DNA from: a virus
Virus record (IMG/VR): IMGVR_UViG_3300043395_002542
Span: 5,162 to 69,161 of that record
Reading direction: 5' to 3' (one strand)
Length of the DNA stretch: 64,000 nt
Below the pieces are notes generated by a model. It was not told the origin of the DNA. It saw only the letters and a program-made list of their open reading frames with translations, and ran no database searches. The position numbers were made by a program, and so were the translations under genes. Positions within the stretch are counted from its first letter, which is position 1. Each line of letters opens with the position of its first letter. Of this stretch, positions 16,503-62,691 are shown piece by piece.

Positions 16503-16700
16503 GACCACCTCGCCAGGAGGGGGGACACTACCCGTCAGCACAAATTTTTTTTGGCTATTCTGTGACCGAATACAAAATGTAACTGCATTTCTTTTTCTAT
16601 ATGAACCCAACACTTCAAGAAATAATAACTGTAATGACGATCTATGTAATTGTATGCTGCATTGCCGTGTATATTATGTCCAAAATACTCGATTGACTCA

Positions 16701-18098
16701 GTGCCCGCAAAATCTCGCAGTTCGCGCTACGCCGATCGCGCTGCACTAAATTCGCTCGGGCTGTTTCAAGACGTTTCTGCCCTACGCAAACTTGCTAAAA
16801 AGAATAATACTGCTTTTGATACAAAAGAATGTGAATTACGCATAATTAACGATCTACTCCCACACCAGTTCAACTTCGTAACAGACTTTACCCATCGCCT
16901 CGTTGCACTATGCGGCGGATTTGGTAGCGGGAAAAGCTTTGCTGCCGTAGCAAAAGCAATATTGCTCTGCTTCAAAAGTCAGGGCTTCACGCACCTATTC
17001 CTAGAACCCACAATCCCTCTCCTCCGAGACGTTGCAATCCCAGCCTGGCAAAACGTGCTTGATAAATACGGCATCCCTTATGAATTTCGTACTTCGCCCC
17101 TTCCTGTCTTTACCTTAAAACTCCCGAACGGCGACACACCTGTACTTCTACGTTCATTTGAAAACTACAATCGCCTCATCGGCGTTAATGCTGCAAGTAT
17201 GACTGTTGACGAAATTGATACAGTTTCGACGCAAACTGCTGAAGCAGCAATTATCAAATTACAAGGGCGCGTTCGTGTGGGCAACTGCCCTCAACTTTGT
17301 TTTGCATCTACGCCCGAGGGACACAAAGCGCTTTATAACATGTTCGTGCGTGAAGCATCAGATGAAAAAGCACTTTATAAAGCACGCACTGCAGATAACC
17401 CCTTCCTTGATCCGGGCTTTATTGAAAACCTGCGTGCTTCATATCCCGCCAACCTGATTGAAGCCTATCTGAACGGCGAATTTGTTAATCTCGCACAAGC
17501 AACTGTATTTTACGAATTCGATCGTCAAAAACATTGCACAAGTGTATTCCATCCAGAGCCCAACGAACTTATTGTCTTCGGCGCAGACTTCAATATTGGC
17601 AAGAGTCAATCTTGTTACGCCGTTGTACGTCCGGGACCAATGGGCCAAATGCTTCATATTTTCGCCGAACACACCTGTCGCACAACTTTTGATCTCGTCG
17701 AGCACATCAAACGTCAATACCCTCGTCAACTCGCCAATGGCATGATCACCTGCTACCCAGATGCCAGCGGCAGTCACGCCAGCACCAGCTCAACGGAAAG
17801 CGATCACGACATTCTGCGCGGCGCGGGCATCAAAGTCGTTGCCGAACGTCGCAACCCACCCGTTGCAGAGACTATTGCTCACGCAAACTTGCATATTCAC
17901 TCGGGCACAGTGCTTGTAAATCCAACAACATGCTACGAAACCATGCAAAGTCTTGAAAACTGGGGGTATGACGAGAGCTACAAGCCAATGAAGGGCGGGA
18001 AAAATGATCTTTCGCACGCCGGAGACTCCCTTCGTTATCTCGTTTGGCAGACGATGCCACGGGCAATTGCGCAAACAAATCGTCCTCGCTGGAGATAG
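16701..18098 (+). CDS. terL: Terminase large subunit
   Basis: Walker A GGFGSGKS, Walker B TVDE, STPEG, nuclease DFN and HAGDSLRY; GTG start at 16701 inferred. Confidence 0.93.
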   Translation: MPAKSRSSRYADRAALNSLGLFQDVSALRKLAKKNNTAFDTKECELRIINDLLPHQFNFVTDFTHRLVALCGGFGSGKSFAAVAKAILLCFKSQGFTHLFLEPTIPLLRDVAIPAWQNVLDKYGIPYEFRTSPLPVFTLKLPNGDTPVLLRSFENYNRLIGVNAASMTVDEIDTVSTQTAEAAIIKLQGRVRVGNCPQLCFASTPEGHKALYNMFVREASDEKALYKARTADNPFLDPGFIENLRASYPANLIEAYLNGEFVNLAQATVFYEFDRQKHCTSVFHPEPNELIVFGADFNIGKSQSCYAVVRPGPMGQMLHIFAEHTCRTTFDLVEHIKRQYPRQLANGMITCYPDASGSHASTSSTESDHDILRGAGIKVVAERRNPPVAETIAHANLHIHSGTVLVNPTTCYETMQSLENWGYDESYKPMKGGKNDLSHAGDSLRYLVWQTMPRAIAQTNRPRWR

Positions 18099-55232: not shown

Positions 55233-55499
55233 ATGTCTCATTTAACGTATCGCCCGGAGGATCAGTTTCAGGAGAGACTCAATGCAGAACGCCTTAAGGA
55301 ACTGTTCACGAAGCATGATCATCAGGGTTTACTTGACTTTGCGTTACTGTTAAACCATCAAGCGTCTTTCAATAACAGCAGGGCGTACTGGGCAATTTGC
55401 GAAGCAGCAAAGAATATGAGCGAAGAATTCAGCCTTGACAAGTACATGTCAATGGCGTCTGATGTACTAAAAGATGAAAATACCCGAGGCGGGATTTGA
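55233..55499 (+). CDS. Hypothetical protein
   Basis: MSHLTYRPEDQF...WAICEAAKN; isolated plus-strand gene. Confidence 0.6.
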   Translation: MSHLTYRPEDQFQERLNAERLKELFTKHDHQGLLDFALLLNHQASFNNSRAYWAICEAAKNMSEEFSLDKYMSMASDVLKDENTRGGI

Positions 55500-55554
55500 A
55501 CCCGCGCTTGAGCGATTTTAAGTCGCTTGCCTCGTTCCGCTGGGCTACTCGGGC
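55481..55554 (-). tRNA. trnL: tRNA-Leu(UAA), short variable loop, no encoded CCA
   Basis: GCCCGAG/CTCGGGT acceptor, AGCGA-CTTAAAA-TCGCT anticodon arm, GCGGG-TTCAAAT-CCCGC T arm. Confidence 0.85.
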
Positions 55555-55560
55555 TTGTGA

Positions 55561-55632
55561 TAGGTCCGCCGAGAATTGAACTCGGTTCTGCCGCTTATAA
55601 GGCGACGGCCTTAACCAATAGGCGACGGACCC
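55561..55632 (-). tRNA. trnI: tRNA-Ile(UAU)
   Basis: GGGTCCG/CGGACCT acceptor, GTCGC-CTTATAA-GCGGC anticodon arm, CCGAG-TTCAATT-CTCGG T arm. Confidence 0.88.
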
Positions 55633-55636
55633 ATCT

Positions 55637-59520: not shown

Positions 59521-60060
59521 TCAGGGAGCAAATACAAAAGCCGCCCCACCAGCTGCTGCTTCATTTAGGCGCGTCACTGTTACGTGAACGCCAGGAACGC
59601 CATCCGGCTTGCAATAAAGCTTGATGGACGAAGCGGCGACAATTAAGGCGTCGTCATCGTAACATACTTTTGTAAGAGCGTCGCCACATGCGCGTAACAG
59701 TTTGTCGGCGTCGCCCAACTTGCTGTGAAAAACGGGCGCGTTCGATTTCAGTTCGCCCTTGGCATTGAAGTGGGCCTTCGGGCGCGGCATGTAAAAAACG
59801 GCGTGCAGGGCGTACAGGCCATTCGTCTGCCACATGTTTGGGCGCATGATCAGGGCCATGCGACCGATACTGCTGCGCCACTGGTGAAGCCCTTTGGACT
59901 GCTCGACCATCGCTACGGCCACACGTTGTTTCCCGTTCGCATCGGTCCAGGTTCGGCCGAAAGCGCTTTTGGAGCCCTGGGTTTCAGGTTTTCCGGCGAC
60001 GAAGAAAGAGAAGCTTTGCTCAGCGCACTCTTCAAAGTTGGTCAGCAGGTTCAGCGTCAC
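59521..60060 (-). CDS. rusA: RusA-like Holliday junction resolvase
   Basis: GKP.TQGSK, PRPK, DADKLLRA..DAL....Y.DD..IV. Confidence 0.88.
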   Translation of the reverse strand: MTLNLLTNFEECAEQSFSFFVAGKPETQGSKSAFGRTWTDANGKQRVAVAMVEQSKGLHQWRSSIGRMALIMRPNMWQTNGLYALHAVFYMPRPKAHFNAKGELKSNAPVFHSKLGDADKLLRACGDALTKVCYDDDALIVAASSIKLYCKPDGVPGVHVTVTRLNEAAAGGAAFVFAP

Positions 60061-60769
60061 TTTTTTGCTGATCCTCTTTGTAAAGCTCGATCAACCTAGC
60101 AACGATGACACGAATGTGATATTTATCAAATCTCTCGTAAAGTTTTTCTGCTATTTTTTTGCAGCCATCTGCTGATACAAACCGTAAGTGCTTGATTGGC
60201 TTGAGCTTTTCTTCTCTGTTTCTTAGCAGATAGTGATCGCAGCAAACGAATACATCTTTGAATTTTCTTCCTGCGCCTATGTCTTGAAGTAAATGCGGGT
60301 AATCGAAATAGAGCATACACAGAAGCCTGTATGCCTCATACTTTTTAAGCTTTTGCGATCGAGGCATGTATCGAATACATGTCTTCAGCCGCTTAAATTC
60401 AAAATACTCACCAGGAAAATTAAATCGCTCGTCTTCATTTTTCAGCCAATTGATCAGCTTTGACGCATATTGAGTTTGCGTTTTGTCTTGTATCGCAACT
60501 TTTGCGCAATTGGCGAGAAACTGATTGATACTTTTCGACGTGATGCCCAGCCCGTATGTGTAGTTGTAGAAAAAATCAATAATGCCACTGAGCTTTGCGT
60601 CTTTACCGTTAAAGGTTTTATATCCTAGGTACGTTTTTCTGCTCATTATTTTGCACATTGTCACGAAGAACGGCTCTGAATACTGACCGTTCATCACTGT
60701 TGACAAGTGCAGTCGCGCTTCTGCTACAAGCCGTGCGTCGTAAAAAATATCGTCCTTAGCCGTGGGCAT
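60032..60769 (-). CDS. Hypothetical protein
   Basis: 245 aa ORF overlapping both neighbours. Confidence 0.65.
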   Translation of the reverse strand: MPTAKDDIFYDARLVAEARLHLSTVMNGQYSEPFFVTMCKIMSRKTYLGYKTFNGKDAKLSGIIDFFYNYTYGLGITSKSINQFLANCAKVAIQDKTQTQYASKLINWLKNEDERFNFPGEYFEFKRLKTCIRYMPRSQKLKKYEAYRLLCMLYFDYPHLLQDIGAGRKFKDVFVCCDHYLLRNREEKLKPIKHLRFVSADGCKKIAEKLYERFDKYHIRVIVARLIELYKEDQQKSDAEPADQL

Positions 60770-61307
60770 TAGCGAGTGCTAGATCAATTTTCGCCCGAAA
60801 CTCTTCAAGAGTTCCGTCGTTTTCGATGATCCTATCAAATCCATTCCACTCGTCTAGCGCACCTTCTGATACGTGAGACCAATCGTGCCCTGCGGATGGC
60901 CGAACAATTTTCCACATTTCGCCGCCCATTTCTTTTATCGCCTCGGCTTCATTCGGGAAGCGAACGTCATCAGCGATTACAGCATCAAATTTTGAAGCCC
61001 TTGCTTTCCACGCACGAATCCAAACATCGTCGCAAACATAATCCCTGCCCCATTGCGTGCCAAGAGTTTGCAGGAGATAACGGCAGCTTGCATTGAGTTC
61101 TTTTATGACAACAGCTTTGTCAACCCACGCAAGTTTTATTGCCTGTTCTTTTTCGTATCCAAAGCTTACCAGAAATTCAGTGATCATTCTTTTCAGCGGC
61201 TCGGCGAAGCTGACTGGCTGATAACCCTTGTGAACCAATACCGTTGCCGCCAATGTCTTGCCAGACTGAGGGGCGGGGCTATAAATACCGATTAGCTTTT
61301 TGGGCAT
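60756..61307 (-). CDS. Deoxynucleoside monophosphate kinase
   Basis: SGKT, SFAEPLK, R.LLQTLGTQWGR, DDVRFPNEAEAI, HVSE. Confidence 0.88.
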   Translation of the reverse strand: MPKKLIGIYSPAPQSGKTLAATVLVHKGYQPVSFAEPLKRMITEFLVSFGYEKEQAIKLAWVDKAVVIKELNASCRYLLQTLGTQWGRDYVCDDVWIRAWKARASKFDAVIADDVRFPNEAEAIKEMGGEMWKIVRPSAGHDWSHVSEGALDEWNGFDRIIENDGTLEEFRAKIDLALANAHG

Positions 61308-61336
61308 TGAAGTTCTGCGTGCATTTCAGGATACAA

Positions 61337-61561
61337 GAAAACCCCCTTTCGGGGGCTTTCCAGCTTGGACTTACGAGCATTTTGTCTTAGTGAGGCCCAG
61401 AAGCCTATGGGTTGGCTGGAACCGCCTCACTCCGCGATCAGACCCCGAGACGTTGCGGACGCCGTGACCTTGCAAGCTACCGCCTGGCCCGAGCAGTAGA
61501 GGTGTTGGCGAGGGGGAGACAAAACAGCAGCGACAGGGATCAATACCTGCTGTGCCCTGCC
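61337..61561 (-). ncRNA. Putative structured ncRNA/attenuator ending in an intrinsic terminator
   Basis: At least seven complementary segment pairs including two pseudoknot candidates; terminator 61337-61360. Confidence 0.55.
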
Positions 61562-61567
61562 AAGAGA

Positions 61568-61939
61568 TCAGAACGCTACATCTTCATCAGATACGGAAGA
61601 GCCGCGCTTGCTTGCATAACGCTCTTCACCGGGGCCACTGTTTTCAGGAATGGTGAAATGAAAACCATCCATGTAAATGGCGTAGTAAGGAGTGTTATCC
61701 TTCTTGGATTCTTTTTGAAGCACGTTTTTGATGAGGCCAGTAATGGTAACCTGGCGACCATCTTGATTGATATAGCGCTGAGCTAGCTCAATCTTTTTGC
61801 CGTAAAAAACAGCGTTAACAAAGTACGACTGCTTGCCGTTGCCAGACTTGCAACGAATAGAAACGGTTGCAGTTTTGCCGTAGTCAGTGTCTTTGACTTG
61901 AATCTCGCCAGTTGTATAACCGGTTGCGGTGAGAATCAT
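61568..61939 (-). CDS. ssb: Single-stranded DNA-binding protein
   Basis: OB-fold-like sequence with acidic C-terminus DEDVAF. Confidence 0.75.
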   Translation of the reverse strand: MILTATGYTTGEIQVKDTDYGKTATVSIRCKSGNGKQSYFVNAVFYGKKIELAQRYINQDGRQVTITGLIKNVLQKESKKDNTPYYAIYMDGFHFTIPENSGPGEERYASKRGSSVSDEDVAF

Positions 61940-62691
61940 GATTCAGTGAGCCGAGGAAAAGTGGTGTTTTCAAGGGAGCAATAAGCTTTGTAGCGCTCGA
62001 TGAACTCTTGCGCTGCAGCCTTTAACTCCTGTTTGTTAAGGACGTGAATGTGTGGCTCACGCCAGTCGTAACAAATGCAGATTACACCCTGAGTTATTTC
62101 CGTGTCAAGTTCTCCGCGCTTAACGGCAAGATTATGAGCAAGTGCGTAAGCGGCAATTTGAATTTCTGCCTCTTTGTAATGAGATATTGACTTTGGTTTC
62201 TTTTTGACGCCCTCCTCTTTGTATGAGCGTACGGTTTTCCAGTCCCAGATGCTGTATTCGCCCTCCCAGAAGAGCCTTGCGTCAGCAGTTCCTGCATAGC
62301 CAAGATGACAATGAAGAACTTCTTCGATTAAAAATGATGGATGACTAACACCGTGCTTAAAATTATTTTCTTTGATAATCTCAAGTACAGGTTGTAAATA
62401 CGTCATATACTCTGGAACGTTATATGAGATCATTTCATCCATACTCGCATGATCCATTCTGTGCTTTTGTGCATCACCAAAGAACGAGAGTTCAGTTTCT
62501 GAGTGAATAATTGTTCCTCTGCGCTGCGCTCGCTCCATGATGTCTTGCCAGTTCGGCTCCATTTGGCGCCAAATTTCAAGACCCTTTAACTTGTTTGGAT
62601 TGAACAGTTCTGCTGTTCTACCAAGAACAGAACTAACCGAGATGTATTCGGTATCTTCTTTTGTATAAATACCAGATTTAGGATGGGCCAT
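61936..62691 (-). CDS. PD-(D/E)XK exonuclease
   Basis: SVSSVL, RGTIIH, YAGTAD...DWKT, QIAAYA. Confidence 0.85.
   Translation of the reverse strand: MAHPKSGIYTKEDTEYISVSSVLGRTAELFNPNKLKGLEIWRQMEPNWQDIMERAQRRGTIIHSETELSFFGDAQKHRMDHASMDEMISYNVPEYMTYLQPVLEIIKENNFKHGVSHPSFLIEEVLHCHLGYAGTADARLFWEGEYSIWDWKTVRSYKEEGVKKKPKSISHYKEAEIQIAAYALAHNLAVKRGELDTEITQGVICICYDWREPHIHVLNKQELKAAAQEFIERYKAYCSLENTTFPRLTES

Follow-up and report, generated by a model that had tools for sequence, protein, structure and literature searches.

The window analysed here, 64,000 nt of a 69-kb IMG/VR virus record, carries on its minus strand a gene module in which a PD-(D/E)XK exonuclease gene is followed by an ssb-like gene, a gap of 260 nt (61308-61567, between the ORF ending at 61568 and the ORF starting at 61307), a dNMP kinase gene, a conserved gene labelled gene X in this report, and a RusA gene (Table 1). 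The gap had been described in an earlier note on this DNA as unusually long, which holds, and its G+C content of 0.57-0.59 exceeds that of the flanking genes (0.44-0.50). The product of the ssb-like gene had no Pfam or PHROG match of its own but was 50% identical (E 7e-33) to a protein of a related locus, L058, that matches the Pfam SSB family PF00436 with 30.2 bits (cut-off 26); given this SSB-matching relative and the SSB-like acidic tail, the name ssb is acceptable for 61568-61939. Gene X, present in 45 of 54 RNA-bearing loci, had no Pfam or PHROG match either, and its predicted structure was confidently all-helical (pLDDT 86), with no convincing PDB match and no fold assigned (best Foldseek match E 1.3; best VIA match Z 6.1, a value common for helical proteins). 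Within the module (59521-62691), the exonuclease and ssb genes overlap by 4 nt, the kinase gene and gene X by 14 nt, and gene X and RusA by 29 nt; these overlaps of neighbouring genes suggest translational coupling at every junction but the one occupied by the RNA described below.

Table 1. Genes, RNA helices and transcription signals at the ssb-kinase locus (window coordinates; two-strand elements are given 5' strand first).
Feature	Positions	Strand	Details
PD-(D/E)XK exonuclease gene	61936-62691	minus	phrog_298, E 3e-21
ssb-like gene	61568-61939	minus	123 aa; acidic ...DEDVAF tail; stop codon 3 nt before P1
Structured RNA, P1 5' strand to P1 3' strand	61364-61564	minus	201 nt
P1, CUUGG/CCAAG	61560-61564 with 61364-61368	minus	closes the whole RNA
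P2, GGGC/GCUC	61554-61557 with 61375-61378	minus	95-100% paired; 4/4 pairs compensatory
Unpaired GUAAGN between P2 and P1 3' strands	61369-61374	minus	conserved
P3 hairpin, CAGCAG/CUGCUG	61525-61552	minus	length varies; some clades without P3
P4, UUUUGUCU/AGACAAAA	61517-61524 with 61380-61387	minus	86-94% paired; 6-7/8 pairs compensatory
P5, CCCC/GGGG	61513-61516 with 61443-61446	minus	90-97% paired; C-G to U-A in several sequences
P6-P6b-P7 arm	61460-61510	minus	
P7 hairpin	61477-61499	minus	invariant U.G pair; 9-nt loop UCGGGCCAG at 61484-61492
P8 hairpin, UCUG AUCG CGGA	61431-61442	minus	86-98% paired
P9-P10 arm, GUGAGGC/GCCUCAC, CC/GG, AGCC/GGCU	61390-61430	minus	GGUU bulge at 61420-61423 (family GGNN)
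Candidate loop-bulge pseudoknot	bulge 61421-61423 with P7 loop 61486-61488	minus	
Intrinsic terminator hairpin, AAAGCCCCC GAAA GGGGGUUUU	61338-61359	minus	U tract UUUUCUU
Conserved terminator tail, UUUUCUUGUAU	61331-61341	minus	
dNMP kinase gene	60756-61307	minus	PF21448, E 2.5e-14; phrog_139, E 5e-43; first gene past the terminator
Gene X	60032-60769	minus	245 aa; conserved
RusA gene	59521-60060	minus	

Single-sequence folding of the window gave a z of -0.92 relative to dinucleotide shuffles, and 33 of 200 shuffles folded as well; the window's own fold is not significant, and the case for structure rests on the comparison of homologues. The SSB protein led to 10 viral contigs, every one with the gap conserved, and the kinase to six, of which four have it; the two 37%-identity kinase relatives are those without the RNA. 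Nucleotide identity of the gap was 71-99% where that of the SSB proteins was 51-100%. A pattern of 19 nt taken from the best-conserved hairpin matched 106 viral stretches, from which 104 new loci were fetched, and a covariance model (R1; 207 positions, 59 pairs) was built from 54 distinct sequences. Of the 104 viral pattern loci, 81 matched R1 along its whole length with 45-200 bits; the window matched with 186.6 bits (E 4e-52), the hit spanning 61362-61566 with 2-nt margins. As negative controls, 79 pattern-matched bacterial and archaeal loci scored 24.6 bits or less, locally and over the hairpin only; they were drawn from at least 120 such matches, all short and local by nhmmer and coding-like in the five inspected, a sample that does not by itself establish absence from bacteria. 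Among metagenome contigs, 17 of the 100 loci searched (of 120 fetched) were true members, all on short contigs that supplied no additional gene context.

Pairing and covariation were measured in three alignments of related sequences in which the cells counted are sequences, so that cell counts exceed independent events. In the MAFFT alignment of 54 sequences, made independently of any structure, paired cells amounted to 85.5% against 72.7% after shuffling, 42 of 59 pairs were compensatory, and the covariation score of 0.411 was reached by none of 500 shuffles (0.200 when shuffled; 0.09-0.17 with slid partners). The MAFFT alignment of the terminator-bearing members (n = 36) had 94.0% of cells paired against 85.2% when shuffled, compensatory changes at 36 of 68 pairs, and a covariation score of 0.365 against 0.205 (slid, 0.07-0.11). 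For 90 distinct model-aligned sequences, whose counts are biased towards the model, pairing was 90.0% against 67.6%, compensatory pairs numbered 52 of 59, and the score was 0.598 against 0.203 (slid, 0.08-0.16). The proposal in the earlier note of a structured non-coding RNA on the minus strand is supported by this covariation, a compensatory fold being conserved in related viral loci, and judged by the comparative evidence the gap almost certainly holds a conserved, genuine structured RNA.

Several observations bear on the nature of the molecule. In the 90 model-aligned sequences, one U.G pair (in P7) is invariant, and G.U cells outnumber A.C cells (525 vs 185), so that pairing is better on the gene strand than on its complement (90.0% vs 83.4%). 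A 163-nt contig from a freshwater metatranscriptome library (X20) is identical to the window and lies wholly within the RNA at 61367-61529, a weak hint of an RNA species that could also originate from contaminating DNA; the same library had no contig on the flanking genes, which is uninformative on their expression. A conserved ORF was rejected as an explanation of the region, with stops in all six frames in 46 of 71 sequences and lengths in all three classes modulo 3. The neighbouring SSB, Erf and PD-(D/E)XK nuclease genes invite the reading that the conserved structure is instead a folded DNA single strand, for example an SSB-resistant priming or initiation signal in recombination-dependent or rolling-circle replication, and structured single-strand initiation signals do occur beside ssb on conjugative plasmids. 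A fold used as DNA would be expected to have few G.T pairs; the plentiful G.U pairs, one of them invariant, favour RNA, and with RNA-type tetraloops and a U-tract terminator on the same strand, and a contig from an RNA library on the element, a DNA-level signal appears highly improbable.

As modelled, P1 was paired in 100% of cells across the 54 sequences, with changes on both sides in three of its five pairs, and its strands are exchanged between clades as whole complementary words. In the adjoining GUAAGN, the U, second A and G are invariant in the same sequences, and conservation reaches 90% or more at the first G and first A. P4 opens a junction with three elements: P5 with the P6-P6b-P7 arm, the P8 hairpin, and the P9-P10 arm. 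Three stems of the earlier note recur in this fold at the coordinates that it gives, all with compensatory changes, namely UUUUGUCU/AGACAAAA, which is P4 (86% paired, n = 54; 94%, n = 36), CUACUGC/GCGGUAG of P7 (99.5% and 99%, respectively), and GUGAGG/CCUCAC of P9 (96% and 99.6%). P7 as a whole had 99% of cells paired, and its family loop consensus is UCGGRCCAN; ACUGCUCGG, CC, G and GGU are invariant in the P6-P7 arm of the 54 sequences. The weakest helices were P6 and P6b (59-78% paired), where the alignment is poor and some clades have an inserted hairpin. P9 was 96-99% paired with five to six of seven pairs compensatory, and P10 was 80-92% paired. Members of the family range from 145 to 225 nt. 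P1, P2, P5 (CCCC/GGGG), P6, the P8 hairpin and the loop-bulge pseudoknot were absent from the earlier note.

Other parts of the anatomy first drawn for this gap did not survive the comparison. An H-type pseudoknot had been proposed in which GGCAGGG/CCCUGUC forms stem 1 and ACAGCAG/CUGCUGU pairs across its loop; the second pairing is real (65% of cells in the wider MAFFT alignment of 54 sequences; 86% in 36, with 6/6 pairs compensatory), yet it forms the plain hairpin P3 rather than a pseudoknot stem, and stem 1 had only 44.9% of cells paired, at shuffle level, so that the H-type and multi-pseudoknot arrangement as drawn is not supported. A UCCGC/GCGGA stem likewise gave 42.3%, P5 and P8 being kept in its place; taken jointly, these two failing stems were paired in 43.7% of cells against 42.4% in shuffles and 38-44% in slid controls. 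For the window sequence alone, the UCCGC/GCGGA stem can compete thermodynamically: the free minimum-energy fold (-88.6 kcal/mol) and the fold with consensus pairs enforced (-85.2 kcal/mol) differ only there. The P3 loop word AUCCCUGU (within 61525-61561, minus strand) is conserved in the window's nearest relatives only; it is able to pair with the P1-P2 5' strands, as in the stem 1 just described, at chance level across the family, and this pairing might represent an alternative conformer, or an intermediate of folding particular to that clade.

A different pseudoknot, between the P7 loop and the bulge of the P9-P10 arm, is supported by the alignment as a candidate contact. Its cells were paired in 92.6% of the 90 sequences, and one of its pairs was C-G in 83 sequences, U-A in five and U.G in one, giving five double changes against 0.4 expected, a value as high as which was found in none of 500 shuffles; the five U-A sequences may represent a single lineage. 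Mutual-information and pair scans for further tertiary contacts yielded nothing convincing beyond the contact numbered 79-81/144-146.

Downstream of P1, the GAAA-loop terminator recognised in the earlier note proved robust, all nine pairs holding in 36 of 36 closer homologues (100% of cells paired) with loops of GAAA, GCAA, GGAA or UUCG, and, being rich in G+C and trailed by a U tract on the strand that is transcribed, the hairpin matches the definition of an intrinsic terminator. The hairpin at 61338-61359 was not listed by a simple terminator consensus scan, probably because A-U pairs that extend the stem consume the U tract. The terminator and its UUUUCUUGUA tail follow P1 in 37 of 54 distinct members. 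Of the 17 members without this unit, at least eight have the next start codon no more than a few nucleotides away from P1; it is 4-5 nt past P1 in the clade with GGGGC after the P1 5' strand, gene X having its start codon 4-5 nt after P1 in one clade, and 16-30 nt past P1 elsewhere. In the UUUUCUUGUA tail (61328-61341, minus strand), T227-A235 are invariant in 36 sequences, beyond what a U tract needs, and the tail leads into a TGTAT-N-N-T word resembling a -10 element with an upstream TG; a kinase-operon promoter may stand back to back with the terminator, at a place where the simple sigma-70 scan made no call.

This variation downstream of P1 resembles an expression platform, and a riboswitch or attenuator was weighed, in which a metabolite or ion aptamer would tune the kinase, gene X and RusA through a ligand-dependent P1 that sets terminator formation in the window clade, where the terminator looks constitutive, or start-codon access in the terminator-less clades. 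The RNA resembles large riboswitch aptamers in its size, its P1-clamped multi-helix fold, its pseudoknot and the terminator or start codon that follows, and, as expected of riboswitches as a class, its fold is conserved and covaries, and bases in its junction and loops are invariant. It differs from them, however, in the lack of conserved mutually exclusive pairing, of apparent coherence among the downstream genes and of a match to a known class. The switch proposed in the earlier note depended on two anti-terminator contacts, the two candidates compared, and neither covaries or shows compensatory change: UUCCAGC/GCUGGAA was paired in 70.9% of cells (71.9% shuffled) with no compensatory changes, and CCCCCU was paired with the terminator 3' arm in 78.9% (77.9% shuffled). 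Instead, P5 covaries internally and the terminator does not follow; in four of 36 sequences, a C of the run is changed to U together with G to A in its P5 partner, the terminator G being unchanged. The downstream genes appear functionally incoherent, whereas the type of upstream gene is constant, and no Rfam riboswitch matched at E up to 10. A classical attenuator is disfavoured in that the upstream neighbour is constant, the downstream one varies and no conserved alternative pairing was found, and on balance the riboswitch reading is unlikely. The terminal CUUG repeats were also considered as a switch and were rejected, as they are not conserved outside the main clade.

The position of the RNA relative to its upstream neighbour is far more regular. 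The stop codon lies 3-10 nt before P1 in 52 of 54 distinct loci, and the upstream gene is of one of four types: the window-type SSB, a canonical PF00436 SSB, a phrog_1607-type SSB, or an Erf-family annealase. No similarity was detectable between the window-type and canonical SSBs (E 0.15), and the Erf annealase occurs upstream in a high-G+C clade, in which the gap to the RNA is 53 nt (L027) or 43 nt (L112). Loci fetched with the window-type SSB protein alone, at identities down to 40%, were followed by the RNA on the same strand in 63 of 63, one copy being truncated where its contig ends. On the downstream side, with the kinase, gene X and the nuclease considered, the first recognisable gene in the 54 loci was the kinase (37 loci), gene X (10), the nuclease (five) or another gene (two); a PD-(D/E)XK nuclease gene lies upstream or downstream in 46 of the loci. 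The tight link to ssb could also reflect an inherited gene order in one broad phage lineage. In the GGGGC clade (L078:5450-6298 and related loci), tandem SSB-cluster genes, encoding 132 aa and then a canonical 140-aa SSB, precede the RNA.

The explanation we prefer, at somewhat less than an even chance of being correct, is that the element may be a stable RNA module that is co-transcribed with ssb and works by binding a conserved partner. It would be produced as the 3' portion of the ssb transcript; co-transcription is suggested by the lack of room for a promoter between the gene and P1 and of a promoter-like site just upstream, a sigma-70 scan having found none inside the RNA or just before it. 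The RNA would persist as a compact, nuclease-resistant module, that is, a 3'-UTR-derived non-coding RNA, and would bind a protein or ligand linked to ssDNA metabolism rather than act as a read-through switch. Recognition by a specific, conserved partner is suggested by the invariant loops and pseudoknot that are maintained across G+C contents of 0.46-0.72 and four upstream gene types. As P1 joins the ends of the RNA, the element would fit into a translationally coupled operon without spatial separation of the neighbouring genes.

Since the element is intergenic within an operon, with a terminator immediately after it in 37 of 54 members, it might alternatively act in cis, as a processive-antitermination RNA for that terminator or as a 3' stabiliser or insulator of the ssb mRNA that sets the ratio of SSB to the downstream enzymes. 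SSB is required in stoichiometric amounts, and, the other module genes overlapping, the RNA junction is the sole uncoupled one. Simple hairpins suffice for mRNA stabilisation, however, whereas invariant loops, a pseudoknot and a 200-nt fold suggest specific recognition; terminator-less members exist, no Rfam family of any kind matched, and known processive-antitermination RNAs have one trait in common with the present RNA but fail on anatomy or match, such that action in cis seems rather improbable. A ribozyme, self-cleaving or with another processing activity, that severs the polycistronic transcript after ssb and before the following gene is very unlikely; phages are rich in small ribozymes, and the position between cistrons of a phage mRNA, together with the complex, conserved fold and its invariant unpaired bases, would suit one, but the RNA is larger than most self-cleaving classes and no Rfam ribozyme family was matched.

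A bolder version of the partner-binding module is rather improbable. The RNA might be a working partner of the phage ssDNA machinery, made together with SSB or Erf and recognised by the ssDNA-binding protein or a host enzyme, for instance as a decoy or regulator that doses free SSB, or as a shield that protects recombination intermediates or SSB from host nucleases and SSB-sensing defences. If so, it would be an RNA counterpart of the protein inhibitors that adjoin exonuclease and annealase genes in other phages.

The element represents an uncatalogued structured-RNA family, new at the level of the RNA family; the earlier note had likewise not recognised a known family in it. A search of Rfam 15 over 60500-62500 at E up to 10 returned five chance-level rows (14.6-18.6 bits, against gathering thresholds of 37-90), and the only one that touches the RNA locus covers the terminator alone, which cmscan weakly aligned to the terminator part of an unrelated leader; nothing matched at the RNA in 12 divergent members at E up to 1. 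Neither blastn of the window and the L078 and L107 versions of the RNA nor tblastn of the window SSB had a match among GenBank phages, and a tRNA/tmRNA scan of the window found two tRNAs only, both away from the RNA. Full-text literature searches retrieved no description of an RNA downstream of a phage ssb. The STAXI RNA motif (RF01728), reportedly described by Weinberg and colleagues in 2010, is said to be a series of tandem small pseudoknots found in conjugative elements, upstream of genes of the ssb type; by that definition, the present RNA is alike in being structured, pseudoknotted, without assigned function and near ssb genes on mobile DNA, but is a single multi-branched fold of ~200 nt, 3' of ssb and in phages, and STAXI had no match in the Rfam scans of the window or of the 12 divergent members.

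GOLLD and ROOL are associated with phages or prophages and are several times larger than the present RNA. According to 10.1101/2024.12.08.627333, both are ornate, covariation-supported RNAs without known function; they are in Rfam, which gave no match here, and the present RNA differs further in its fixed position after ssDNA-binding genes. The main text of PMC10690425 reports candidate structured RNAs predicted from IMG/VR, over 10,000 of them unnamed, from the same data source and with the same covariation-type evidence as used here; that main text has no element after ssb ("ssb" and "kinase" each occurring 0 times), and an unnamed listing in its supplements is possible. It also recounts that T4 gene 32 autoregulates SSB through its own mRNA and gives 12 unnamed "GP32" candidate RNAs (PMC10690425). 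The gene 32 operator pseudoknot and, going by that main text, the "GP32" candidates are likewise structured RNAs tied to a phage SSB gene, but they are located 5' of the gene and influence the initiation of translation, whereas the present RNA is far larger and has little single-stranded sequence. An autoregulatory operator of the gene 32 type, which has a pseudoknot and an unstructured tract 5' of the SSB start codon, was rejected, as the element is 3' of the ssb stop codon.

The family is carried by uncultured aquatic tailed phages, in which the RNA lies directly 3' of the ssDNA-binding gene of a recombination and replication module, and the window's own locus is covered by contigs 86-98% identical to it from three metagenome runs in three studies, with freshwater, wetland and marine labels. 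If upheld, it would constitute a new class of ornate RNA with ~90 distinct sequences, a well-determined secondary structure and a pseudoknot. It follows a strict genomic rule, placement after ssDNA-binding genes of four unrelated types, that is rare among orphan RNAs and offers an experimental handle, and it would indicate that the replication and recombination modules of uncultured freshwater and marine phages hold conserved RNAs that are missed by gene callers and Rfam-based annotation. Elsewhere in the window, adjacent tRNA genes for Leu(UAA) and Ile(UAU) lie at 55481-55633 on the minus strand. The large terminase (16650-18098) is ~40% identical to those of Salmonella Jersey-like, Synechococcus and Prochlorococcus siphophages, and leaders in related loci are C/U-rich and devoid of Shine-Dalgarno words, which together give a weak hint of picocyanobacterial hosts.
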